From: a virus
Virus record (IMG/VR): IMGVR_UViG_3300018080_000003
Coordinates: 1 to 64,000 of that record
DNA: 64,000 nt
Strand: one strand, 5' to 3'
This document shows positions 32,309 through 56,849 of the stretch, piece after piece. The notes beneath the pieces were generated by a model. The model worked only from the letters and a program-made list of their open reading frames with translations, was not told the origin of the DNA and searched no databases. Made by a program: the position numbers and the translations under genes. The number at the start of each line of letters is the position of its first letter. Position 1 is the stretch's first letter.

Positions 32309-32983
32309 ATGCGTTCGCTCCTGAAAGACCTCCGCTACCATGCTGCTCGTCGCCTGACTCTCTTTCTGGAGGGGGAAGAGGCGGAGCGTGATGACGCTGC
32401 GTGGGCGAAGATGCACGAGGAGGAGCTTCGTGCTGTGGAGGCCGAGTCTCAGGCTATCGATGGCCAGCTGGTTCCTCGTGGTGAGGATGATGAGCCAGAG
32501 TGGACGGAAGAGCAAGTGAGGGCTTTCGAGAAGGCCCTAGACGCTTCTGATCGAGCCTTGGATGACATTGGGGAGAAGCTGTTGGCTTTTGAGCAGGAGA
32601 AGAGGTACACGGAGGCGGAGTTTCAGGCGGCGGTCAAGGACCTGAAGCGTAAGAACTCCGAGTACTTCGATGTGATCCGCTCTTTGGAGCGGGAACGGGA
32701 CGACTGGCAGAAGCGGTTTCAGGTACATGTGAGCGGCCATCTGACGGCGCAGTCGATGTACGAAAGGGATTTGGTTCGCTCTCGGCAGGTAGGGGCGACG
32801 CTGCTCAATAAGTTCAACGAGTACCGTGTTGAGAAGGGGGACGCTCCGATTGAGTTGCAGCGTCTCTCGGATATTCTGCCTGTGGATGGTGAGCCTGTGG
32901 GTACTTTCAAGAAGCAGGTAGACGAGCACATCTCGCTCCTTCGGAGTCTGGATGAAGCGTTCAAGGCGTCTAGTCCCGAGTGA
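32309..32983 (+). CDS. coiled-coil hypothetical protein
   Basis: 224 aa, helical; first gene of the plus-strand arm. Confidence 0.7.
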   Translation: MRSLLKDLRYHAARRLTLFLEGEEAERDDAAWAKMHEEELRAVEAESQAIDGQLVPRGEDDEPEWTEEQVRAFEKALDASDRALDDIGEKLLAFEQEKRYTEAEFQAAVKDLKRKNSEYFDVIRSLERERDDWQKRFQVHVSGHLTAQSMYERDLVRSRQVGATLLNKFNEYRVEKGDAPIELQRLSDILPVDGEPVGTFKKQVDEHISLLRSLDEAFKASSPE

Positions 32984-33028: not shown

Positions 33029-33106
33029 CATCCCTGAACTCAGGTCAGCTGGTTTCGAACACAGCGCGGTTTGACCCTGGAGTGCCTCGCCGGAGGTGCG
33101 TCCGAA

Positions 33107-35356
33107 GTGTCCCGCACGAAAGCTCTGACCCGACCCATCACTCGCAAGCAAGCGAGGTCGTACAACCGAACCGTCCCAAACGGTCGCGGTGTGACGGCAC
33201 TTGCTGAGGTGAACGGGAAAGGCGCTTACAAGCGGCGCTACCAGGCCACTCGCCGGCTCCTGAAGAACGGCAGCGGGAGTGACCAGATGTACACAGCGGC
33301 CCAAAAGCGCGCGATGAAGAAGATGAGCCCGGCTCAGCGCGCATCTTTCAAGAAGATGCTCAAGCGCGCGCCCTCGATCGCAACGCTTGAAAAGAAGCGG
33401 AAGGCCTCGGCGAAGCGCAAGGCCGCTCCCCAGCGGATGAAGTCGAACGGTCGACGAAAGTCGACGACCACGCGCTCAAAGATGACGCCGAACCGGCGCA
33501 AGACGCGCGCTGGGTCCACGGCTCCTCGGAAGTCGGATTTTATCGAGGCGCAGATTTCTCGTGGCCGCACCAAGAAGCAGGCCGAGTCTTCCTGGAAGCT
33601 CGCGCATGGCCGCCACTACAGCAAGACGGCCGCGAAGGGTGCTGCCAAGCGCAAGCGCCGTCGCGTCTACGGCAAGGGCAAGTACAAGGCTGTGAAGGCC
33701 CGGATTGGTCCCAAGAGCCGTTTCACCTACAAATACACCTCCAAGAGCCGGCGCAGCGGCAAGGAGTCCCTGCGGGACATTCCGGACCATGCGCTCCTCG
33801 GGTTCAAGACCCGCAAGGCCTATCTGGAGGTCGTCCGCGACATCGGCGAGTGGGGCCTCCCCCCCAAGCGCGCTCGGCGGGCGAAGGCGCTGGAGAAGCG
33901 CCTTGATCGTCTCGCAGCTCGAAGAGAGCGTGCTGCCGAGAGAGCCGCGAAGCGCATCAGGGCGGGTCGCGGCATGTTCACACCGAACGATGGGAGCAGC
34001 GCGCTCTCGTACGAGGAGTTCGAAGACATGAAGATGCGTCGAAACATCAGAAAGAAGTCGACCAAGAAGAAGGCGACTCGCAAGAAGACGACCGCGAAGC
34101 GGACTTCGTCGGCGAAGCGTCGTGCCGCGGCCAAGAAGGCTGCCGCGACCCGGAAGCGCAACGCGGCGAAGCGGAGCGCTGCGGCCAAGAAGGCGGCTCG
34201 GACCCGGAAGCGGAAGGCGACTGCCAAGAAGCGCACCACCAAGCGCACCACCAAGCGCACGACCAAGCGTCGCACCACGCGTCGCGTACGTCGGACTCGT
34301 GTCGGGCCGCGCAGCGCAGCGATGCGTCGTCGCAAGGGCAGCGTGAGCGTGAGCTACGCGGCCAACAAGCCGAAGCGTCGGAAGAAGGCCGCCAAGAAGC
34401 GCACGTACAAGAAGACCATCACGGTCGGTCGTCGTGGGCACAAGGTGCGCATTCGGTACCGCGCGAACCGCATGTTCAAGCGCAACGAGGGCTTCGTCAG
34501 CCAGCTGACCAAGAGCCTCAAGCTTGGCGCCGTGGTTCTCGGTGGCTACCTCACGCATCGCGTTTTGACTCGCGTCATCGACGACAACGTGACCAGCAAG
34601 ATCGGAGCGCTCAACGAGGGCACCCTCGGCAAGTACCGCACCCTCATCTCGGGCGCGGCGACTGCGGCCATCGGTATCCCCGCGGCCATCGCTGGTTCGC
34701 GCGCGGCCAAGATGCCCGATATCGCGGCTCCCATCGCAGGCGGCATGGCTGCCAGCCTCATTCAGTCGCTCATCGTGACCGTCCTGGGCGAGACCGCTCC
34801 TGAGTACGCCGGCTACTTCAGCAACTACGCGAACGCGGGTGGCACGGCCACTCCCGGCGGGGTTCTCGGCAGCTACTACACCCTTCCCCAGGCGGGCATG
34901 GGTTCGTACTACGAGTTCCAGCCCCATCAGATCATGCCGGCTGCCGGCATGGGCCAGCTCACCCAGGCTGCTGCGGGCATGGGCCAGCTCACTCAGGCTG
35001 CTGCGGGCATGGGCTCGCCGATGCTCACCCAGGCTGCTGCGGGCATGGGACAAGCGATGCTGACCCAGGCCGCTGCGGGCACCGGTGAGTACGTGGCTTA
35101 CGCCGCGAACGGCATTGGCGAGTACGAGGAGACTTCGGTTTCCGCGTCTCCCATGATGGTGGACGAGGGCATTCACCCGAACCTGCACAGCGCGGAGCAG
35201 GCTCTCACCGTGGCCGAGGCCGCGGCGGGCGTCGGCGCTGCCGACATCCCCCTCCAGTCGACCGTGGAGCCCACCGTCATCGCTGATCCGATCAGCGATG
35301 CGCCCAGTGGCTCGCGTGCCGGCGTCTTCCAAGGCGGCGACGGCATCTTTGCCTGA
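33107..35356 (+). CDS. histone-like Lys/Arg-rich DNA-condensing core protein with membrane domain and GMG repeats
   Basis: GGAGGT RBS then GTG at 33107; long K/R/A/T-rich region (AAKKAA, KRTT repeats); hydrophobic helices; QAAAGMG repeats; acidic tail. Confidence 0.75.
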   Translation: MSRTKALTRPITRKQARSYNRTVPNGRGVTALAEVNGKGAYKRRYQATRRLLKNGSGSDQMYTAAQKRAMKKMSPAQRASFKKMLKRAPSIATLEKKRKASAKRKAAPQRMKSNGRRKSTTTRSKMTPNRRKTRAGSTAPRKSDFIEAQISRGRTKKQAESSWKLAHGRHYSKTAAKGAAKRKRRRVYGKGKYKAVKARIGPKSRFTYKYTSKSRRSGKESLRDIPDHALLGFKTRKAYLEVVRDIGEWGLPPKRARRAKALEKRLDRLAARRERAAERAAKRIRAGRGMFTPNDGSSALSYEEFEDMKMRRNIRKKSTKKKATRKKTTAKRTSSAKRRAAAKKAAATRKRNAAKRSAAAKKAARTRKRKATAKKRTTKRTTKRTTKRRTTRRVRRTRVGPRSAAMRRRKGSVSVSYAANKPKRRKKAAKKRTYKKTITVGRRGHKVRIRYRANRMFKRNEGFVSQLTKSLKLGAVVLGGYLTHRVLTRVIDDNVTSKIGALNEGTLGKYRTLISGAATAAIGIPAAIAGSRAAKMPDIAAPIAGGMAASLIQSLIVTVLGETAPEYAGYFSNYANAGGTATPGGVLGSYYTLPQAGMGSYYEFQPHQIMPAAGMGQLTQAAAGMGQLTQAAAGMGSPMLTQAAAGMGQAMLTQAAAGTGEYVAYAANGIGEYEETSVSASPMMVDEGIHPNLHSAEQALTVAEAAAGVGAADIPLQSTVEPTVIADPISDAPSGSRAGVFQGGDGIFA
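34940..35086 (+). repeat. tandem 30/36-nt repeats encoding (T)QAAAGMG
   Basis: CAGGCTGCTGCGGGCATGGG-like unit repeated 4-5 times. Confidence 0.9.
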
Positions 35357-35364
35357 GCCCCACC

Positions 35365-35496
35365 GGGGCAGCCTTTCGGGGCTGCCCCATCGTCCAACCC
35401 AACAGATTCCACGGCTGAATTGGTCAGCCGTCGAAACATCAACCACAGAACTGCGGACCGAAGAGGAACCAGGCCTCTATAATCATGGAAGTCCGC
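35365..35496 (+). promoter_or_regulatory. structured 5' leader of the capsid candidate (three hairpins)
   Basis: GGGGCAGCCT-TTCG-GGGCTGCCCC (35365-35388); ACGGCTGA/TCAGCCGT (35411-35431); GCGGAC/GTCCGC enclosing AGAGG/CCTCT (35453-35496). Confidence 0.6.
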
Positions 35497-35512: not shown

Positions 35513-36268
35513 ATGGCCAAGTTGACCAACGTCCGTGAGCGTGTACATCAGCCCTTCCGGGACTCGCTCATCCGCACCTCCGGCTACAGCGCCGGCTCGC
35601 TCGACGACCGCACCGACCTGTTCACCCAGGCCGGCAAGTCCGACGGTGAGACCAACCTCAAGCAGGGCAGCGTGCTGCCCAGCGACCAGTCGATGGTCGT
35701 CCTCGCGCTTCGCGCCTTCCTCTGGTTCCGCGCTCCGGTCGCCCGTTCGGCCGCGACGCTCGGCGCCAGCACTGGCGTGAACGGTGACTACTTCATCACC
35801 GCTGGCAACGAGGCCGCCGCCGTGAACCTGCTCAACGGCAGCGTTCCCGGCGACTACCACGACGTGCACCGCCTCTACTGGCAGGCCTCGGAGCAGCTGC
35901 TCTGGAGCTTCGGTGCTGGAGACAAGTTCTCCCTCACCAGCATGCCGTCCAGCTACTTCCCCTGGGGTGGTGGTCTGAGCGGCGACGTGGGCGGCGCGAC
36001 CGACCTCGTGCACTGGAACAACGGCACCCCCGACCAGGCTGGCATCCTCCGCCTGGCCCGTGCCGTGCTCATCCCCCCGCGCCAGAACATCCGTACCGCG
36101 GCCACGATCGTCCGTCTCCCCGACGGCGGCAACGGTTCGGTTCCTTTCGGCGTCAACCAGGGCTCGCGCAACATGCTGAGCCTCCAGGACAACCTGAACG
36201 CGGTCGACCTTGTCAACAAGGTCATCGCCTTCTCGTTCGACGGCCTCTTCAGCCGCGACGTCCAGTGA
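35513..36268 (+). CDS. major capsid protein candidate (jelly-roll type)
   Basis: Very strong C/G-ending codon bias; bracketed by a structured leader and a terminator; follows the core protein; beta-rich (QPFRDS...TNLKQGSVLP...VVLALR). The fold assignment is inference. Confidence 0.5.
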   Translation: MAKLTNVRERVHQPFRDSLIRTSGYSAGSLDDRTDLFTQAGKSDGETNLKQGSVLPSDQSMVVLALRAFLWFRAPVARSAATLGASTGVNGDYFITAGNEAAAVNLLNGSVPGDYHDVHRLYWQASEQLLWSFGAGDKFSLTSMPSSYFPWGGGLSGDVGGATDLVHWNNGTPDQAGILRLARAVLIPPRQNIRTAATIVRLPDGGNGSVPFGVNQGSRNMLSLQDNLNAVDLVNKVIAFSFDGLFSRDVQ

Positions 36269-36304
36269 AAACCGGCGGCCTACAGAAGGTCGCCCGGTGA
36301 TTTG

Positions 36305-36345
36305 AGGGCCGGCTCAGCGCGGGGCTGGGTCGGCCCTTTCTTCTT
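36305..36345 (+). terminator. rho-independent terminator
   Basis: AGGGCCGGCTCAGC/GCTGGGTCGGCCCT stem followed by TTCTTCTT. Confidence 0.7.
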
Positions 36346-36407: not shown

Positions 36408-37550
36408 ATGGATCCTCGAATCAAAGCAATTCAGCAGCAGGCCTACGAGCAGGGGCTCCTTCAGGGGCAGCAGCAGGCTCGACTGAACGACATGGGTCTT
36501 CAGCAGGCTGCGACCGAGCTTCGCAAGGAGTTCGACGCCAAGATGAACCGGATGGCAGGTGGCCTCCGGAAGCAGATGACGGATCACAGCGCCTCGGTGC
36601 ACGAGAAGCTGGGTCAGATCCAAGCTGCAGCTGACAGCATCTCCATCACCGGCGGCGGAGAGGTCGGCTACAACATGCGGGATGAGGGCAACCTGGTTCG
36701 CCCCGGAAACACCCGCATCGAAGACATTCCAGGTCGGCGTGTTCCCTACGTCTACTCGGTGGACATCTTCATCGAAAACAACACCACGAGCGTTCGTGAG
36801 GCGAGCTTGACGATCAGTCAGGAGGGCCCGTTCGTCGCGGTGAAGCGGATGGCTATCTTTCAGAGTGCCTACGAGTTCCAAGCGACGGACCCAGCTTCGG
36901 GTAACTTGGCTCGCTTCGCAGGCCGTTCGTACGGCCGGTACCGTCCGATTCACTCGGCCTGGGACCTTTTGGATGCGCAAAGCAACGCCGTGACGGACAG
37001 CAACGGTTGGTGGGTTCAGCAGAAGGCTGAAGCGGCTTCAGCTGGCGTGGGCAACCCGGTTGCAACGGCTGCGCTGAGCCTTCCGAGCAACAGCAGCAGC
37101 TTCCGCACGATGGAGTTCGATGGTCGCATCGAGGTCATCAACGCGGGCAGCAGCTACCCGCGCCAGAACAAGGAGATCCCTTCGGCGTTCTGGAGCAGCT
37201 CGATCAACTCTCCTTGGGACCTCGGTGCCCTGGACTTCTTCGAGCGTGGCGAGGTTGTCACCTTCAAGGTGAATCCGACGCACGTGAACAATCCGCCCGC
37301 GGGGAACATCCAGAGCGACTGCGTTCTTCCGAATACCTTCAACGGTGGCGATGGCTGGCCCTTCTTGGAAGGCCAGTACGACCTTCACGAAGGCATCTGC
37401 ACCCCTGAGGGCGCGACCATCGGCGAGTTGGCCGCTCCTCAGCGTGTGAACGTGGTCGCAACGGACCCCATCCAGCGCCTTCCGGATGGTATCCTCACGT
37501 TGGCCTTCGAGGGCTATCGGATCATCCAGCCCATCGGTCCGGCCGCCTGA
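36408..37550 (+). CDS. second capsid-like protein with N-terminal coiled coil
   Basis: AAGGAG RBS; beta-rich body (PYVYSVDI...LTISQEGPFVAV...LAFEGYRI). Confidence 0.5.
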   Translation: MDPRIKAIQQQAYEQGLLQGQQQARLNDMGLQQAATELRKEFDAKMNRMAGGLRKQMTDHSASVHEKLGQIQAAADSISITGGGEVGYNMRDEGNLVRPGNTRIEDIPGRRVPYVYSVDIFIENNTTSVREASLTISQEGPFVAVKRMAIFQSAYEFQATDPASGNLARFAGRSYGRYRPIHSAWDLLDAQSNAVTDSNGWWVQQKAEAASAGVGNPVATAALSLPSNSSSFRTMEFDGRIEVINAGSSYPRQNKEIPSAFWSSSINSPWDLGALDFFERGEVVTFKVNPTHVNNPPAGNIQSDCVLPNTFNGGDGWPFLEGQYDLHEGICTPEGATIGELAAPQRVNVVATDPIQRLPDGILTLAFEGYRIIQPIGPAA

Positions 37551-37560
37551 GGAGTGAAGT

Positions 37561-38460
37561 ATGGCGCATCGACGCAGAAAAAAGTCGCCCAATCTCGGTA
37601 CTGTGCCGGGTCAGGTGGTTCCGATCTCAAACGGGGGTCATCAGCTCGTTTCCAAGGGCGCAGCTCAGACCCTTCTGCGTGGTGAGATTGCGCGTGCGCT
37701 GCAGGACAAGGACGACTACCTCAGCACTTTCGAGGGACAGCAGGCTGGTGTTCCAGGAATGGGCTCGGCGCCTGAGGTTCGGCATGAGCCGGCTGGCGGC
37801 GTCTTCACCAAGTTCCTTCACCCGGCTTTCACCATCATGGAGTTCCTCCGGCGCTCGTTGCCGGAGGAGGGCTGGTTCGACCCGGGCGTGAACCCCCGCA
37901 ACCCGATCCAGTTCCAGCTTGGAAGCTTTCAGGTTCCAAGCGGTCTGGCCCTCTGGCTCTACGACTACGAGTACAAAGTTTTCCGTCCTTCTGGGGTAGA
38001 CCCGGGAGACTTCATCCCGGCTGAGGTCGGTCGCTACAGCAATCAGATCGGTTTCGATGTGACGCTGAGCGGTAAGAGAGACGCGCAGCTCAGCATTCAG
38101 CTCGACCCTCAGACGACGAGTCTTTCTCGTCAGGAGTTCGAGCAGCAGGGCAACACGGGTGGTGCAAGCATCTTCGGCAATCCTCCGACGGCATCTAGCG
38201 CGTTTGATCGCGCCACGGCGAACTCTTTCGCTTCGACGGCCGGGCCGGGAACGTCGCTTTTGCCCAACCGTCCGAACAAGTTTGGTCCTCGGGGCGGCCC
38301 GTGGACTCTGGTGGCAGACGAGGGCACGCGTGTCGCGCTCAACGTCGTCATCTTCAACCGTATTCGTTCTCCCTTGGCGGCCGTAGAGGGTCGCTTGGGC
38401 GGGTACTTGATTCAGCGGCAGGTGAGCAGTTCGCTCATCAACCGTGTCCGTCCGCGATGA
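37561..38460 (+). CDS. putative minor capsid/penton-like protein
   Basis: Basic N-terminus, GMG and GGVF motifs, beta-rich body (FQVPSGLALWL...GRLGGYLI). Confidence 0.5.
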   Translation: MAHRRRKKSPNLGTVPGQVVPISNGGHQLVSKGAAQTLLRGEIARALQDKDDYLSTFEGQQAGVPGMGSAPEVRHEPAGGVFTKFLHPAFTIMEFLRRSLPEEGWFDPGVNPRNPIQFQLGSFQVPSGLALWLYDYEYKVFRPSGVDPGDFIPAEVGRYSNQIGFDVTLSGKRDAQLSIQLDPQTTSLSRQEFEQQGNTGGASIFGNPPTASSAFDRATANSFASTAGPGTSLLPNRPNKFGPRGGPWTLVADEGTRVALNVVIFNRIRSPLAAVEGRLGGYLIQRQVSSSLINRVRPR

Positions 38461-38466
38461 TCAGGA

Positions 38467-38573
38467 GGCGAGAGGCAGAGCAGACAGTCGGAGTAGAAAC
38501 AGTGGGGACGCAACCGCGAATGTGTTGTGCCCTCCAGCCGCTGGGGCTTCGGCTGTCTGCTCTGCTTCTCGCC
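38467..38573 (+). ncRNA. candidate structured RNA (107-nt rod hairpin)
   Basis: 27-bp terminal stem whose three non-WC positions are all G.U on the + strand; inner stems CAGTGG/CCGCTG and CGCAAC/GTTGTG. Confidence 0.55.
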
Positions 38574-38584
38574 ATCGTTTGACC

Positions 38585-39253
38585 ATGTACACCTCTGTAG
38601 GACAGCTATCCGGATACGGACCTTGGGGCCGCAATGTTGCGGAGACCGATGAGGTGTACGTGTGGCGCGGTATGTTTGATGGTGCGCAGATCCTCACGCA
38701 GCAGGACCTGCAGGCCATCGTTGCAAGTGTCGGGAAGAACCAGAGTCTGGACTTCGACATCCGCGGCGTAACGGTCAAGCCTCTGGGTGGCAGGAATAAC
38801 AAGGTTGAGGTGGCCTTCACCACGAAGATCCCTCGTATTTACGCGCTCGACCCCGACTTCATCACGGATAGCGCTTCCAGCATTGCTCGGAAGCTAGAAG
38901 CTGACCTCGCGTCTCGCTTCGGACCGTTCCGTGTCGAGGATCCGAAGTTCCTCGCGATCGATGACGATGAGCCGAAGCATCCCGCCTTGGACTTCTGGCT
39001 GTCGCACGCGACCCTCTGGGATCAGCCTCTCATCGGAGATGCGATCCCCACCCAGGCCTGGGAGAAGTTCCAGGGCATGTACAAAGGATCTGTCGATCAG
39101 GGAATTGCCCTGAAGAAGTGGCAGAACCCCTCCGACCCGAGCTCGGGCAATGGAGACACTGAGAAAGACCATACCATCTTGTGGGCCATCGGCGGCGCAG
39201 CCGTGCTGCTTGGAGGCTTCTACTTGATGCGAAAAGGAGCAGCAAAAAGATGA
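38585..39253 (+). CDS. tail-anchored virion protein
   Basis: Start at ATG 38585 (MYTSVGQ); C-terminal TM + RK. Confidence 0.75.
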   Translation: MYTSVGQLSGYGPWGRNVAETDEVYVWRGMFDGAQILTQQDLQAIVASVGKNQSLDFDIRGVTVKPLGGRNNKVEVAFTTKIPRIYALDPDFITDSASSIARKLEADLASRFGPFRVEDPKFLAIDDDEPKHPALDFWLSHATLWDQPLIGDAIPTQAWEKFQGMYKGSVDQGIALKKWQNPSDPSSGNGDTEKDHTILWAIGGAAVLLGGFYLMRKGAAKR

Positions 39254-39843
39254 GTTACGGTGGAGTTGGTTCGTACTACACCCTTCCTGGCATGGGTTCG
39301 TACTACACCCTTCCTGGCATGTCCGGGTTTGGCTCGACGGCCGACACCTTCGATGCCGCGGCGGTGTGGGCAGACGTGCAGCTTGGCGGCTCGTGCTACG
39401 GCGCGCAGGGCGTCATCAAGGGCTCGAACGTCGGCGCGTGCAACGCGGCTGGTGGTCGTGCGGCTCGCGCGATCCAAGCGGCGCTCAACGAGATGGGCTA
39501 CGGCCCGCTGGCCGTGACGGGCAAGTGGGACGGCGCGGTCTCGGGCAAGTGGAAGCGTTTCCTCTCGGATCACGGCCTTCAGCCGGGACCGGGCCTCGGT
39601 GTCTCCGAGCAGGGCCTTCTCCTGATGGAGAAGCTCCTGAAGGAAGGCAAGACCCCCGGGCCCAACAAGCCCATCGTCTACGACAAGCAGGGCGACCAGT
39701 ACATCCCGCGTGATGCCGGACCCGGCACCGCGACCGCGGGCATGGGCGCTGGTGGTCTACTCCTCGGCGTTCTCGTCATCGGTGGACTCGGCTACGCGGC
39801 CTACCAGAGCGGCAAGAAGCGGAAGGGTCGACGCGTCCGATGA
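39250..39843 (+). CDS. tail-anchored protein with peptidoglycan-binding-like domain
   Basis: Start at ATG 39250; AIQAALNEMGYGPLAVTGKWD resembles PG_binding_1; AGMG-TM-KKRKGRR. Confidence 0.7.
   Translation: MSYGGVGSYYTLPGMGSYYTLPGMSGFGSTADTFDAAAVWADVQLGGSCYGAQGVIKGSNVGACNAAGGRAARAIQAALNEMGYGPLAVTGKWDGAVSGKWKRFLSDHGLQPGPGLGVSEQGLLLMEKLLKEGKTPGPNKPIVYDKQGDQYIPRDAGPGTATAGMGAGGLLLGVLVIGGLGYAAYQSGKKRKGRRVR
39268..39321 (+). repeat. perfect 27-nt tandem duplication encoding GSYYTLPGM
   Basis: GGTTCGTACTACACCCTTCCTGGCATG x2. Confidence 0.95.
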
Positions 39844-50805: not shown

Positions 50806-51113
50806 TGTGGGTTGTATCTTTTGCAGTTTCTGAGGACAACGTCGTCTTGATGGGCACCTTCTCCGAGCGGCTTGAAGCTAAGCGGTTTGGCGAGAGGGTC
50901 GCCAGGCGACAGGGCTACAAGGGCGAGCTGTCTTGGCATGATGGCTCCGAGACGTTCTGGTTCGAAGAGCCAGGACTCGAAGGCGGCTTCTTCATCACGC
51001 AGCCCGTCTCCAGACTCACCCATGAAGGCAAGAAGGCACAAATCGACATCAGTCGACCTAGCTTCGAGAAGGTGTTCGATCTGATGGAGGAAGAAGAATG
51101 CCAAACCGCGTAG
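50802..51113 (+). CDS. hypothetical protein
   Basis: ATGA overlap. Confidence 0.55.
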   Translation: MMWVVSFAVSEDNVVLMGTFSERLEAKRFGERVARRQGYKGELSWHDGSETFWFEEPGLEGGFFITQPVSRLTHEGKKAQIDISRPSFEKVFDLMEEEECQTA

Positions 51114-54100
51114 GCATCGTCACCGTCGCTGATAGTCGCAAGGGGCTGTGGCGCGACATGGAAGTCCTTAGCTGGGCCGTCAGCATGCCGCCCCCCAGGG
51201 CGGAAGGCCAGCGTGCTCAAGGTTTGAGCGTCTTCTGTGCGAAGATGAGTGACCGCGTCTCCCCTTCGGTGGTGAACAGCTTGCCGGAGGGCGGTAGCGC
51301 GGGGGCACCCCTGTTCCAGGGCACCTTCGAAGCGTTTGCACAGACATGTGATGTGGTGGTCTTCTTCGAGACCTTCTACATCAACCTCGTCAAGCATCTG
51401 GTCGAGAAGGGTAAGCGCGCGATCTACGTCCCGAACCTCGACTGGGCGACCTGCTCAGACGGAGGCTCGATGGCGTGGAAACGTCAGATCAAAGAGCTTC
51501 AGAACTCGACTGACAAGTTCCAGGTCTGGGCTCGGCAGCCTTCGATTGAGCATGCGCTTTTGGAGCATGGTGTTCGGAGCGAGCATGTCCCTTGGTCGAT
51601 CCCTGATGAGATCGTTCGTGAGCCTGAGGTCAAGGCTGACGATCAGCCCTTGAAGTTCTTCGTCAACGCAGGCTTCGGAGGCCACAAGGGACGTCGCGCG
51701 GTGGACCTCGTGCTCAAGGCCTTTGCGAAGGCGAAGAAGCGCGCCCCGATGGAGCTAATCGTCAAGAGCATCAAGCCTCTCGTCGAGTACGTCGGAGATG
51801 CGATGGGTTGCATCGACGAAGACGTCGGTGTCATCGAGGGCTTTAGTCCGCGGACTCAGATCGATCAGCTGATGAAAGAGGCTGATGTTGTAGTTAGTGT
51901 CTCTCGCTGGGAGGGGTTCGGTTACGGTGTCATCGAGGCACTTCATGCGGGCAAGCCAGTGATCACACATGGTGGTTGGCCTGTTGGTGACGCGGTCACT
52001 CACAAGCACAACGGTCTCCTGGTGGAATGCGCATCTCAGGGGAAGTTCAACCTGACGCCTCACTGGGAAGCTGACGTCGACTCCATCGCCGATGCGATGG
52101 TCGAGCTTGTGACAGATCGCGATCTGTTGCGTCGTCTCACCGCACCCTGCCCGGCGGAGCTTCAGGCGCGCCAGTACGCGTTCATGCTTCGCGCTCGCGC
52201 TCTTCTCTTCGAGGAGCCTGAGCCGCGGGTCGTCATCTTTGGGAGCGAGCAGCATTTAGCTCAGCCTTCTGAGAAGTACTGGCAGATGGCGCTCGAAGCT
52301 CACGGCTATCGGGTGGACTACCAGCTGGCGAAGGGCGGCAACTACGGCGCGACTCTCGCGAAGTGGTGCGATTTCATCCTAGTGGGCAAGGCGCGCTTGG
52401 AGACGCTCAAGAAGGTCCGTGACAACAACGCACACGACGTGCCGGTGATTGTCTGGCATCACGACTACGGGACGGTTGTCAGCGAGCTTCACGACAACTT
52501 CCTCAAGTACGGCGATCTCGTCTTTGCTCCCTACGAGCAGGACGACGTGAACTATCTTCTACCGGGTCCTCGCTCGGGTGGCGACCGCGGCCGGGGCCTT
52601 CGCCGCACCTACAAGAAGCGGGCGGAGCCCGAGCATGACGTCGTGTTCATCGGTGGGGACTCCTTCGAGCGGAAGGCGATCCTCAAGCAGCTGAAGGCTG
52701 AGGTTGGCCTCGTAACGTTCGGCCCTGGGATGGCACACCCGCCTGTGTACGACGCCTCAGCTGACGACGTCTACAGCAACGCGAAGATCGCTCTCAGCCT
52801 TTCTCGCTTCAACGACACGCCTGGCTACACGAGCAACCGGCTGTTTCACGCAGCCGCGCTTGGGACGGCTGTCTTCTCGCACACATTCCCTGGTGATCGA
52901 CAGCTTTTTCCAGAGAAGCTTGCTGGCATCTTCTTCGTCCGTGGTGGCGACATGTCAGCGTCGATCCAGAAAGCGCTCATCGGCTGGGATCACCTCAAGG
53001 GACAAGCGCAGGAAGTGGAGAGCTACTGCTGGCGCCACCATTCTTGGCACGATCGGATCTACCAGATGGTCTGGCGGATCCACAAAGCCATGACGGACAT
53101 CCGAGACAAACGTCGCAAACGCAACCGGAAGAAGAAGCCGCCTCGCAACGCTCTGCAGTTCATCCCGAAAGGAAAGCCCATGGCACCCCCGAAGCCGCCT
53201 GTTGTTCAGACCCCTGACTGGAACGGACCGAAGAAGGTCAACATCGGATCTGGTCCGCGCGTCCATGCGGGCTACGAGAACATCGACGTGCGGCCGTTCC
53301 CTGGCGTGCGTCAAGTCGACTTGATGAAGGGCTTGCCGTACCCGGACAACGTTCTGCACGAGGTCCTGGCGGAGGATGTGTTGGAGCACTTCCGACCGGC
53401 GGAGCTGGTCAAGACGATCCTTCCGGAGATCTACAGAGTCCTCCGACCCGGCGGCAGACTGGTGGCGCAGATGCCCGACCTTCACGAGATGGTCAAGCAG
53501 TGGAAGCGTGGGGATGTTGACGATGAGATGATGTCGATGCGCATTCACGGTCGTCAGGACTATCCGGAGAACACGCACTACGCCTCCTACACCGAGGCGT
53601 CGATGACGAAGATCCTCAACCGCATCGGCTTTGGCACGGTGAAGCGTCTCGACACCCGGAACTGGAACATGGTGCTGGAGGCTCGCAAGGGCCCAGCGGA
53701 GGCTCCGCAGCAGAACCACCGCAAGGAGTTCAAGCCTCAGCCTGGCAAGGGCGACCAGACGGACTGGAACGCGTACTGGGAGCAGCGCTCACAGAAGATG
53801 GGACAGCTCTCGGTCACGCCGGGGAGCTGGAACGAGCTGCGTCAGCGCCAGGAGACGGACAAGCTCTTCAAGCTGATGGAGGTCGAGTGGCGCAAGCGTT
53901 CTGGCGCTGTCGTCATGGACTATGGCTGCGGCGTGGGCCGGATGTCGCGCAAGCTCCAGGAGGCGGAGGTCAAGGTCAAGGGTGTCGACGTGTCGCCGAA
54001 CATGGTGATGATCGCGCGGAAGAACGGCGTGGATGCCGATCTGATCGAAAACAAGCGCATCCCCTACGAGGACGACACCTTCGAGGGTCTCTTCGTCTGC

Positions 54101-54409
54101 ACCGTGCTGCAGCACATTCCTGACCTCGACCTCAAGGCAGCGGTGGAAGAGATCAAGCGCGTGCTCAAGCCGGGCGCTTTCATCATGCTCTTCGAGAACT
54201 GCGAGGGTCGCTACGGACGCACGTCTTCGAGTGGGCATGTCATTTTCCGTGAGCCGGGTGAGTATGCTTCTCTCTTCGAAGGGATCCAAGAGGTACTTCG
54301 CTACAACATCGAGGGCGAAGACCACGTCCTCATGTGGGGCACGCTCGCGGGCGAGCCTGAGGCGGAAGCCGAGGAGTCTGAAGGAGAGCCTGAAGAGACG
54401 GAGTCATGA
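51098..54409 (+). CDS. multidomain glycosyltransferase x2 + SAM methyltransferase x2
   Basis: SRWEGFGYGVIEALHAG (GT4); SNRLFHAAALG...HSWHDR (CgeB/YkvP-like GT); NIGSG...VLEHF...YRVLRPGG; DYGCGVG...VLQHIP...KRVLKPG. Confidence 0.85.
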   Translation: MPNRVGIVTVADSRKGLWRDMEVLSWAVSMPPPRAEGQRAQGLSVFCAKMSDRVSPSVVNSLPEGGSAGAPLFQGTFEAFAQTCDVVVFFETFYINLVKHLVEKGKRAIYVPNLDWATCSDGGSMAWKRQIKELQNSTDKFQVWARQPSIEHALLEHGVRSEHVPWSIPDEIVREPEVKADDQPLKFFVNAGFGGHKGRRAVDLVLKAFAKAKKRAPMELIVKSIKPLVEYVGDAMGCIDEDVGVIEGFSPRTQIDQLMKEADVVVSVSRWEGFGYGVIEALHAGKPVITHGGWPVGDAVTHKHNGLLVECASQGKFNLTPHWEADVDSIADAMVELVTDRDLLRRLTAPCPAELQARQYAFMLRARALLFEEPEPRVVIFGSEQHLAQPSEKYWQMALEAHGYRVDYQLAKGGNYGATLAKWCDFILVGKARLETLKKVRDNNAHDVPVIVWHHDYGTVVSELHDNFLKYGDLVFAPYEQDDVNYLLPGPRSGGDRGRGLRRTYKKRAEPEHDVVFIGGDSFERKAILKQLKAEVGLVTFGPGMAHPPVYDASADDVYSNAKIALSLSRFNDTPGYTSNRLFHAAALGTAVFSHTFPGDRQLFPEKLAGIFFVRGGDMSASIQKALIGWDHLKGQAQEVESYCWRHHSWHDRIYQMVWRIHKAMTDIRDKRRKRNRKKKPPRNALQFIPKGKPMAPPKPPVVQTPDWNGPKKVNIGSGPRVHAGYENIDVRPFPGVRQVDLMKGLPYPDNVLHEVLAEDVLEHFRPAELVKTILPEIYRVLRPGGRLVAQMPDLHEMVKQWKRGDVDDEMMSMRIHGRQDYPENTHYASYTEASMTKILNRIGFGTVKRLDTRNWNMVLEARKGPAEAPQQNHRKEFKPQPGKGDQTDWNAYWEQRSQKMGQLSVTPGSWNELRQRQETDKLFKLMEVEWRKRSGAVVMDYGCGVGRMSRKLQEAEVKVKGVDVSPNMVMIARKNGVDADLIENKRIPYEDDTFEGLFVCTVLQHIPDLDLKAAVEEIKRVLKPGAFIMLFENCEGRYGRTSSSGHVIFREPGEYASLFEGIQEVLRYNIEGEDHVLMWGTLAGEPEAEAEESEGEPEETES

Positions 54410-55140: not shown

Positions 55141-55280
55141 GCCTGAGGTCAGGTCGCGCGCCGACCAGCGGCTGATGCGCTGCGCCTGGTGCTACATTCT
55201 GCTGGCCCAGCCTCACCCATGGTACGACAAGGATACTGGGATGCTCTGGGGTCTTTGTCGTAGGTGCGTACCGGGTGGTT

Positions 55281-55289
55281 TGCTATACT
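55281..55289 (+). promoter_or_regulatory. extended -10 promoter
   Basis: TGcTATACT, 9 nt before the ATG at 55299. Confidence 0.45.
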
Positions 55290-55298
55290 ACTAGCGCC

Positions 55299-55769
55299 AT
55301 GGGCCAGTACACTTTCCAGCAGGGATTTAGCTACGTCGCAGCTTTCGACAAGCCTTGGATTGCCAGCTCGGGCATGATCAAGAGCGGCGTCGAGGACCAA
55401 GGCTTTCGGGTTGATGCCTACTACAAGTGCGAGAAGGCCCCCAACTTCCCCTTCGTCCCCCCGAGTCGCGCTCGCTGTGGCAAGGACTACGACCACGTGG
55501 CCGTGGTAACGCGGACGGCGCGAACGGAGCGAATCGATGTTCCGAAAGAGGTGAAGTGGATCGTCCAAGTTCCGAAGGCTCAGCCTTCGCCTCCGCCCAA
55601 GCCGCCTTCTGGCACGCTTCCGCAGCAGGGCCCATCGGGGCCCAACATCGCATCGTCGGCGCAGGCGCCGAACCTGTTAAAGACTCCAGGCAAGGAAACG
55701 CCGAAGTGGGTCTGGGCAGCGGCGGGCGGAGCCGGTATCATCGTGCTCTTGAAGTTGCTGGGCAAGTAG
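55299..55769 (+). CDS. tail-anchored protein
   Basis: Start MGQY at 55299; Pro linker; C-terminal TM + K. Confidence 0.7.
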   Translation: MGQYTFQQGFSYVAAFDKPWIASSGMIKSGVEDQGFRVDAYYKCEKAPNFPFVPPSRARCGKDYDHVAVVTRTARTERIDVPKEVKWIVQVPKAQPSPPPKPPSGTLPQQGPSGPNIASSAQAPNLLKTPGKETPKWVWAAAGGAGIIVLLKLLGK

Positions 55770-55790: not shown

Positions 55791-56849
55791 ATGAAGATTC
55801 GACTGTACGGCGTAGACCGTGGAGAAGGCAGCTGGACGCGCGTCAGCCGTGGGGTAAAGGAAGGCCTGGAGGCTTGCGGTGCGCTTGCGTCGTTTCTGAA
55901 TGTCAGCCGGGTGGATGATCCTGGCTACGACTCCCTTGACCAAGGTTTTGACGCTCCGGTCGGTTTGACGATCGGTCCGCCGATGGCGGCTAGCGTGATG
56001 ATGGGGCGTGGAGAGCATTATCGGCGCCTGCTGATGATCGCGAGCAACAGCTCGTGGTTGCCCCGAAGCCTGATGGAGCGGTCGGACAAGATCGTCACGG
56101 GCTACGTTGGTCCGAGTCAGTTCTCGATTGAGGTGATCAAGAGAAACACGCTGATGACGAAGAGTCTCCACCTCTACCTGCATGGGGTGGACAAGGCTTT
56201 TCAGCCGATGCGCGGGGTGCGGAAGCCGAAGGGGTGGTCGGTGCTTCACATGGCTTCGACGCACATGCAGCGTAAGGGAACGCGGGAGCTTCTGTACGCG
56301 TGGGGCTTGGCGCTCCGGAAGAAGCTGATCCCTCAGGACAGCGTTCTTCGTCTGGTGATCGATGGCCCGAAGGGGGTATATCTTTCGGAGATCCATAAGG
56401 CGACGCAAGGGATCGTTGAGCACGCGGAGAGCATCGTGGTTCTGCCGCGCCTAGAGCTTTCTGTAGATGATCTGCGTTTCTTCTACGCGCAGCACCACTT
56501 GGTGGCTCAGCCTTCTCGGGCCGAAGGGTTCGGCATGGTTCCTTTGGAATCAAGGGCCTGTGGTGTCCCTGTGCTCGCGACGGCTTGCACCGGTCATGAG
56601 GAGCACATCCAGCCGGCGGATGGCATCGTCGTGGTACCGCATGGCTTGAACGGTCCGATCGATGATGGTCCGGGAGCGGAGGCGCCAACTGTTTCTCCGG
56701 AGGACATCTGTGAGGGCCTCATCGAGGCTTACGATCGACGAGAGGTTTTGAGTGCGCTCGCGATGGAGCAGTCGGCTTACTTTCGGGATGTTTGGTCCTG
56801 GCCGAAGGTGACACAAGAGTTTCTCCGGTCTCTTGAAGCTAGCTCTTGA
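55791..56849 (+). CDS. glycosyltransferase, GT-B/GT4
   Basis: HGVD, RKG, PSRAEGFGMVPLESRACGVPV. Confidence 0.9.
   Translation: MKIRLYGVDRGEGSWTRVSRGVKEGLEACGALASFLNVSRVDDPGYDSLDQGFDAPVGLTIGPPMAASVMMGRGEHYRRLLMIASNSSWLPRSLMERSDKIVTGYVGPSQFSIEVIKRNTLMTKSLHLYLHGVDKAFQPMRGVRKPKGWSVLHMASTHMQRKGTRELLYAWGLALRKKLIPQDSVLRLVIDGPKGVYLSEIHKATQGIVEHAESIVVLPRLELSVDDLRFFYAQHHLVAQPSRAEGFGMVPLESRACGVPVLATACTGHEEHIQPADGIVVVPHGLNGPIDDGPGAEAPTVSPEDICEGLIEAYDRREVLSALAMEQSAYFRDVWSWPKVTQEFLRSLEASS

Follow-up and report, generated by a model that had tools for sequence, protein, structure and literature searches.

To our knowledge, the bacteriophages characterised so far use a motor to pack their DNA naked; genomes condensed by protein are found in adenoviruses, giant viruses, baculoviruses and a few archaeal viruses. 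In adenovirus, the Arg/Lys-rich proteins pVII, V and pre-mu condense double-stranded DNA inside a jelly-roll capsid, and the precursors are cut during maturation at short sites with a hydrophobic residue in position P4. The internal proteins IPI–III of bacteriophage T4 are basic, are packed with the DNA and are cut by the prohead protease gp21 at L/I-x-E, i.e. a hydrophobic residue, a spacer and a fixed P1. The described architecture that appears closest to the virus presented here is that of SPV1 (Sulfolobus polyhedral virus 1; family Portogloboviridae), which has a single-jelly-roll shell, an inner membrane, a nucleoprotein core of VP1 and DNA, and no packaging ATPase (PMC8459092, PMC8812541). 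The protein under study, P0001, is encoded in the window, the stretch of 64,000 nucleotides made up of positions 1–64,000 of the 143,727-bp IMG/VR record IMGVR_UViG_3300018080_000003, which has direct terminal repeats and is rated complete. The gene is real and spans positions 33107–35356 of the + strand. From its sequence, we give about an even chance to the proposal that P0001 is the chief DNA-condensing (core) protein in a bacterial virus that is large and tailless and contains a membrane.

The most prominent feature of P0001 is its basic N-terminal arm. Residues 1–480 contain 164 Lys/Arg and 22 Asp/Glu, a net charge of +142 with 34% K+R, and the remainder is mainly Ala, Thr, Ser and Gly. 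P0001 is the only convincing polycation of the genome; other ‘basic’ open reading frames (ORFs) look like out-of-frame artefacts. The genome carries 287,454 phosphates, all of which would be neutralised by about 2,000 copies of P0001, and fewer copies would suffice for a partial neutralisation such as that in adenovirus. An earlier reading of this DNA, made from the letters alone (the sequence-only reading), had described a K/R-rich, histone-like region followed by hydrophobic helices, GMG repeats and an acidic tail, and this anatomy is confirmed; in composition the arm resembles histone H1 and protamines. The hydrophobic segments lie at residues 473–491 (approximately, and weak), 512–530 and 543–561; the GMG repeats, which are part of the tag described below, are visible in the DNA as tandem repeats at 34940–35081; and residues 681–749 have a net charge of −8.

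The same architecture is found throughout a large family. A word-indexed search returned at least 181 homologues of 410–1100 amino acids on contigs of up to 177 kb, and an exhaustive search with the C-terminal 290 residues gave at least 159 clusters at 50% identity, nearly all of them of 600–850 amino acids with this module at the C-terminus. Across 106 homologues, the arm measures 320–572 amino acids with a net charge of +75 to +181 (median +130), the hydrophobic region 92–115 amino acids, and the C-terminal tail 148–229 amino acids, with a median net charge of −13 and 3–11 tags (median 7). The arm contains four conserved islands, and its sequence between them is free to drift; AKKA/PKKA or KPKA repeats, resembling histone H1 tails, make it up in some lineages. 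A charge that always falls within this range while sequence and length vary freely is the pattern expected of non-specific charge neutralisation. Every element of P0001 is retained in a deeply diverged clade (loci L005–L010 and L018). Among the relatives there are no true split-gene forms and no protein of 30–410 amino acids matches the arm, which indicates that the fusion of arm and anchor is obligatory. Short entries beginning at a conserved Met after N460 were considered as split genes and dropped; they share 90% clusters with full-length proteins and are thus gene-call artefacts.

Searches for P0001 in Pfam (hmmscan, 0 families at E≤0.1), PHROGs and NCBIfam gave no match, and the neighbouring genes likewise matched nothing. 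Profile searches of the PDB with the N-terminal and central islands returned nothing meaningful and no sequence match. Nothing was found by tblastn of P0001 and of two proteins encoded downstream (251 and 380 amino acids, see below) against GenBank phages, or by comparing P0001 with a collection of phages and archaeal viruses; the ESM Atlas held only unnamed viral clusters for P0001, and no description of the protein or of its virus group was found in the literature. The parallel with adenovirus pVII and mu drawn in the sequence-only reading therefore does not extend to homology. P0001 shares their Arg/Lys-rich composition; however, a regular-expression search for the adenain sites (M/I/L)XGX-G and (M/I/L)XGG-X gave only IAGG-M at residue 543, within a hydrophobic segment, and none in the basic part. 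The adenovirus core proteins are also small and soluble with no membrane anchor, and adenovirus possesses the packaging ATPase IVa2. The K/A/P/T/S low complexity of the arm resembles that of H1 C-terminal tails, Hc1 and AlgP-type KPAA/AKKA proteins, but these lack the conserved islands, anchor and tail, and P0001 lacks the winged-helix globular domain of linker histones H1/H5 (no match to Pfam Linker_histone).

Membrane anchoring of P0001 is predicted with moderate confidence, most simply as a helical hairpin. The genome encodes more than 20 Gly/Ala-rich anchors at protein C-termini, and the hydrophobicity of segments 512–530 and 543–561 lies at the weak end of their range. Crude sums on the Hessa biological scale are +4.2 kcal/mol for 512–530, +2.9 kcal/mol for 543–561 and +7.2 kcal/mol for 473–491.

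The tag found after the hydrophobic region links P0001 to other proteins of the virus. The form GSYYTLP.GMGSYY is common to P0001 and ORF 39181, and several proteins with a C-terminal (tail) anchor begin with the tag. Residues 585–603 of P0001 are nearly identical to the start of the ORF 39181–39843 product (GVGSYYTLPGMGSYYTLPGM); this ORF also has a weak match to PG_binding_1 (E 0.03). ORFs 38444–39253 and 55275–55769 begin with a related MYTS.GQ tag, and all three terminate in a Gly/Ala-rich anchor. In a distant relative (L018:4087–5262), the P0001 homologue is preceded by a gene for a tail-anchored protein, which starts with ...GAPGIGEYTGY, a tag as in the P0001 tail, and finishes with a hydrophobic helix and WWWWKRRR.

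To look for a packaging machinery, hidden Markov model (HMM) searches were run on the six-frame translation of the complete 143.7-kb genome. No match was obtained to FtsK_SpoIIIE (FtsK/HerA), Pox_A32, Terminase_6N, TerL_ATPase or the HK97 Phage_capsid family. A scan for Walker-A motifs identified only a primase-helicase, a DinG-like helicase and a MoxR AAA+ protein adjoining a VWA protein, plus weak matches. The lack of a recognisable packaging ATPase or terminase fits co-assembly better than packaging by a motor, and is in line with the co-assembly packaging that the sequence-only reading had put forward as possible. The MoxR-type AAA+ gene (bpMoxR, E 9e-46) lies next to the VWA-domain gene at genome positions 93868–96573 (L012:9868–12570); it has the highest GC content at third codon positions (GC3) of the genome, 0.91. 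Apart from the replication helicases, its product is the sole P-loop protein, which makes it a candidate for an assembly or remodelling role.

The proposal of a core protein is based on the charge, the predicted anchor, the fixed place before capsid-like genes (see below), the shared tag and the lack of a known motor; the GC3 of P0001, which ranks 7th of 76 genes of at least 200 amino acids and is taken here as a proxy for expression, also favours it. In the mechanism we envisage, the arm of ∼460 residues (about +140) would bind and neutralise the 144-kb genome, the two Gly/Ala-rich segments would insert into the viral membrane and keep P0001 there, and the acidic tail, with its several copies of the G-x-G tag, would dock the protein on a common partner, which might be a sorting factor or the capsid shell. 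DNA collected on the membrane would then be enclosed during assembly of the particle, of which P0001 would be a component, with no packaging motor. Such a particle would match the architecture described for the archaeal virus SPV1, with its core of DNA and basic protein.

Several points weigh against this proposal. The virus is uncultured and P0001 is known from sequence alone; the anchor is marginal on the crude sums given above; the model of the 380-residue capsid-like protein is unreliable; and a missing HMM match is no proof against a divergent packaging ATPase. There is also a question of topology. Under the positive-inside rule, the polycation would stay at the cytoplasmic side of the membrane, and in the assembly model of PRD1 the cytoplasmic leaflet faces the capsid and not the packaged DNA (PMC6356626). 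In a PRD1-type vesicle the arm would thus face the capsid, and the core model needs a different assembly route. Either assembly is unlike that of PRD1, the membrane closing around DNA that is already bound to it, or the arm lies outside the core.

The second arrangement would correspond to a layer of the cement or tape-measure type that lies between capsid and inner membrane, in which the charges would bind anionic lipid and the acidic inner face of the capsid, the Asn motifs described below would dock capsomers, and the arm would be off the genome. We regard this as unlikely. It agrees with the capsid-facing orientation of the PRD1 model, and the tags in the C-terminal tail match the cytoplasmic N-termini of the tail-anchored proteins, which suggests that all face one side. 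A comparable space is occupied in SPV1 and PRD1-type virions by sub-capsomer proteins, which span the distance between membrane and capsid (PMC8459092). However, a charge of this size, carried by drifting H1-like repeats, is far above what docking needs and is typical of nucleic-acid neutralisation, and the length of the arm varies widely while the capsid proteins are highly conserved. No tape-measure protein that we know of is a polycation as large as P0001.

The core-protein proposal leaves the role of the Asn residues to be considered. The sequence-only reading had noted recurring xxN motifs that punctuate the arm. All ten strings listed there are present (N25, N36, N54, N114, N129, N294, N313, N420, N454 and N460), and they comprise 10 of the 12 Asn of the arm; but Asn is not enriched in P0001 (18 of 749 residues, 2.4%), so that ‘xxN’ alone merely enumerates Asn residues. 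What is real is a sharper motif, [Y/F/M]-x-x-N, which occurs nine times against 1.4 expected, a count reached in none of 200 shuffles. Among the 1,325 arm Asn of the 106 homologues, Tyr, Phe or Met is found at position −3 in 38%, compared with a background of 6.8%. The signal is specific: at other offsets from −5 to +5 of Asn these residues make up at most 11%, and around eleven other residue types at most 16% at any offset. It persists for the 951 Asn outside the five conserved columns, is individually significant (p≤0.01) in 89 of the 106 homologues, and is seen in the distant clade as 6–9 motifs where about one is expected.

As to conservation in homologues, proposed as a check in the sequence-only reading, five Asn are near-invariant: N25 (in 89 of the 106 homologues, context x-P-N), N36 (96, V-N-G), N294 (103, F-[TS]-P-N), N313 (89, M-x-x-N) and N460 (106, Y-[RK]-R-N). 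The conserved Asn lie mostly within conserved islands of 40–50 residues and not in bare linkers. In the variable stretches, copies of the motif appear and disappear from one lineage to the next. Pro at −1 of Asn is enriched 3–6 fold, which speaks against a helical ‘same face’ arrangement and points to an extended or turn conformation of the kind found in protease sites or docking peptides. Helix capping was dropped as an explanation, since the hydrophobic residue is at −3 and not at −1/+4 or −4/+1, and since Pro is enriched at −1; N-glycosylation was dropped as well, there being only three N-x-S/T sequons, all of them away from the conserved Asn. Across the genome's 194 remaining predicted proteins the motif is at chance (133 observed, 121 expected), and a genome-wide protease signal was discarded on this basis. 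A 1222-residue recombinase-like protein at genome positions 125788–129456 (L014) ends, in its C-terminal 20 residues, with F-R-E-N-Y-R-R-N-G-N-A-F, a sequence similar to the motif Y-R-R-N-(G)-F that precedes the anchor in the P0001 family.

The motif raises the possibility that P0001 is a precursor, as in the polyprotein model of the sequence-only reading, cut after the Asn of [Y/F/M]-x-x-N by an Asn-specific protease of the virus or host or by self-cleavage at Asn, so that protamine-like peptides would be released and the arm freed from its anchor at N460. The motif is shaped like a protease site: P4 is hydrophobic, P1 is fixed, and Tyr, Phe or Met are found only at −3 and only before Asn; the sites of the T4 internal proteins are built likewise. 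The extended or turn conformation suggested by Pro at −1, the coming and going of extra copies in variable stretches, and the position of the invariant N460 exactly at the boundary of arm and anchor agree with cleavage. Cutting after every motif would yield pieces with a median of 40 amino acids. In many homologues N25 is followed by Pro, and Asn-Pro bonds self-cleave in FlhB/YscU and in reovirus mu1.

Other observations make such processing rather unlikely, although the cutting of P0001 into small peptides is a possible outcome. No HMM match in the genome was found for the proteases Transglut_core, Peptidase_C93, C13 (PF01650), C14 (PF00656), C5 (PF00770) or C48 (PF02902), the cut-off for PF00770 and PF02902 being E≤1. 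Thus the recurrent fixed-Asn site expected of Asn-specific processing (legumain C13, asparagine peptide lyases) is seen and a clan CD peptidase (C13/C14) is not; the lack of the clan CE proteases C5 (adenain) and C48 (Ulp1) differs from adenovirus, and the lack of a recognisable prohead-protease-like gene from T4. In addition, T4 is a tailed, HK97-type virus with a terminase, and its internal proteins are small and soluble, with another site and another protease family. In adenovirus and T4 one type of site marks many virion proteins, whereas the motif is private to P0001 and the capsid-like proteins do not carry it. Four of the five invariant Asn lie in long conserved islands that resemble folded or docking modules, and the residue after Asn is mostly Arg, not Gly or Pro. 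The motif offers a concrete, testable handle as either a cleavage or a docking site. A doubtful extension of the core-protein proposal would combine the two: packaging without a motor on a membrane-tethered ‘chromatin’ protein, closure of a jelly-roll shell, and then cutting at [Y/F/M]-x-x-N by an undescribed Asn-directed activity, releasing protamine-like peptides and unhooking the DNA for delivery, in a widespread lineage of large bacterial viruses.

The position of the gene bears on whether P0001 belongs to the virion at all. In 14 of 14 loci with enough upstream DNA, comprising ten IMG/VR loci (L001–L010) and four contigs of metagenome-assembled genomes (MAGs; L016–L019), a P0001 homologue stands directly before three conserved, beta-rich genes. 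The sequence-only reading had placed the gene first in a capsid operon. It is indeed the first of a conserved four-gene block, but a GC hairpin and a TATAAT element (35478–35483, 30 nt before the 251-residue gene) separate it from the next gene, so that a single operon is not shown. The 251-residue gene is followed by a strong terminator with a 15-bp stem and a T tract (36304–36338) and has a GC3 of 0.89; this candidate major capsid gene looks like a highly expressed unit of its own.

It is conceivable that P0001 is not a virion protein, and instead tethers viral (or host) DNA to the membrane inside the cell while that DNA replicates, or is delivered into the host as a polycation with a role in entry or ejection. 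The gene is located at the junction of a divergent replication block (SSB-like protein, methyltransferase, helicases, primase) and the late block, and the hairpin and TATAAT set it apart from the capsid-like gene. These are points in favour of such a role; yet its place directly before the jelly-roll-like genes is strictly kept in two deeply diverged clades, its tag is shared with putative virion membrane proteins and it has a high GC3 in common with the capsid gene, all of which make a non-virion function very unlikely.

The protein of 251 residues has at least 695 homologues, all at least 53% identical. An AlphaFold2 model (129 sequences; pLDDT 78, pTM 0.79) shows an eight-stranded sandwich with inserted helices. 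A Foldseek search of this model against the PDB gave nothing significant, and profile searches of the PDB with the two capsid-like families gave nothing meaningful. Below the level of PDB significance for the 251-residue protein, both modelled neighbours (251 and 380 residues) have the capsid chain 6oj0_T of SPV1 as their first fold match or close to it; lower matches of the 251-residue model are calicivirus S domains, XepA, picornavirus VPs, satellite virus coats and PRD1 P5. Its best match in BFVD is a viral protein of 211 residues (E 1.4e-3, TM 0.42–0.48), and in the ESM Atlas there are weak leads to the PM2 P2 and PRD1 P3 families (0.75–0.77). The features of the locus are collected in the table.

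Features of P0001 and its downstream genes, in positions of the window
Feature	Position	Strand	Description
Ribosome-binding site GGAGGT	33091..33096	+	10 nt before the GTG start
P0001 gene	33107..35356	+	749-residue polycationic, anchor-bearing protein; at least 181 homologues; GC3 0.81
Basic arm, residues 1–460	33107..34486	+	K/R/A/T/S-rich low complexity, net about +140, [YFM]-x-x-N motifs interspersed
N-terminal conserved island, residues 5–50	33119..33256	+	Invariant Y19, N25, G28-V29-T30, V35-N36-G37, R44
Central conserved islands, residues 185–315	33659..34051	+	TY.Y..KKG..R.IP..ALLG hairpin-like block, RR.RAA helix, F-[TS]-P-N (N294), M-x-x-N (N313)
DNA tandem repeats in arm	34110..34285	+	54-bp unit x2 (AAKKAARTRKR-type); 12-bp unit x3–4 (TTKR)
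Pre-anchor motif R-M-F-K-R-N	34472..34486	+	Family form Y-[RK]-R-N; N460 invariant in 106/106, kept in the distant clade
Hydrophobic region, residues 466–561	34502..34789	+	Amphipathic/weak 473–491, then Gly/Ala-rich anchor-like 512–530 and 543–561
Tag-repeat region, residues 584–675	34856..35131	+	G-[MLVIT]-G-[SQE]-[YL] units, including GSYYTLP.GMGSYY and AAGMGQLTQ repeats
Acidic C-terminal tail, residues 676–749	35132..35353	+	Best-conserved part: GIGEYE, DEGI.PNL.SAEQAL.VAEAAAGVG, PGGSRAGVF.GGDGIF
GC hairpin	35365..35388	+	Perfect 9-bp hairpin just after the P0001 stop, no U tract
251-residue protein gene	35513..36268	+	Most conserved of the block, 53–70% identical across loci; models as single jelly roll; candidate major capsid protein
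380-residue protein gene	36408..37550	+	41–57% identical; N-terminal long helix and beta-rich domain; second capsid-like gene
299-residue beta-rich protein gene	37561..38460	+	28–51% identical; third conserved gene of the block

The P0001 reading frame is open from 33071 to 35356 on the + strand, and the GTG at 33107 is the preferred start. The N-terminus read from this codon aligns residue by residue with those of the homologues. A long ORF opposite P0001 is a high-GC shadow; it is the P0001 frame that has the high GC3 and the conserved homologues. Several database entries for the family (P0242, P0244, P0253 and P0303, as well as an Atlas record) are mis-started at V29 or at the Met just after N460, which hides the polycationic arm from annotation pipelines.

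Just upstream of P0001, positions 32309–32983 encode an acidic (net −16), coiled-coil-like protein of 224 residues, which is kept in that position in L001–L004 and not in the distant clade; it could act as a chaperone for the basic P0001. The late block also includes a protein of 1103 residues with two GT4-type glycosyltransferase domains and an S-adenosylmethionine (SAM) methyltransferase (51098–54409), and a second GT4 gene at 55791–56849; these genes suggest glycosylation by the virus, with a target in the particle or in the host envelope.

Six contigs (L015–L020) come from GTDB MAGs and were binned as Methanomicrobiales, Pseudomonadales, Pirellulales (two), Pseudomonadota and Gemmatimonadota; one of them, of 122.7 kb, is probably a whole viral genome. 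A host assignment from the MAGs was rejected, as the bins are inconsistent (an archaeon, Pirellulales, Pseudomonadota and Gemmatimonadota) and the contigs mis-binned; their disagreement means that no host is indicated. SSIP-1 was rejected as a cultured relative: hhalign of the capsid family with gp46 gave 0.4% probability, and SSIP-1 has no polycationic protein.

Taken as a whole, the interpretation given in the sequence-only reading is partly supported. P0001 may be functionally akin to adenovirus pVII/mu, SPV1 VP1, baculovirus P6.9 and the T4 internal proteins, and is a member of none of these groups. The resemblance to SPV1 lies in the lack of a recognised packaging ATPase; in contrast to SPV1, which is archaeal and has a genome of 20 kb, the P0001 virus is of bacterial type with 144 kb, and P0001 carries, beyond its basic arm, tag repeats, an acidic tail and hydrophobic segments of the anchor type. 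No sequence similarity to SPV1 was found, and VP1 is likened to P0001 by its description and not by its own sequence. Three features of P0001 are unprecedented: a membrane anchor fused to the polycation, a sorting or docking tag in several copies, and a [Y/F/M]-x-x-N motif that is private to this protein.

A polycation of the P0001 type heads the capsid gene block in a widespread group of bacterial viruses of 60–180 kb with no recognisable packaging ATPase. If the core-protein proposal is true, motor-free, chromatin-like packaging would exist in bacterial viruses too. The group would then be a direct bacterial counterpart to the architecture of SPV1, which has been proposed to resemble an ancestral state of jelly-roll viruses (PMC8812541).

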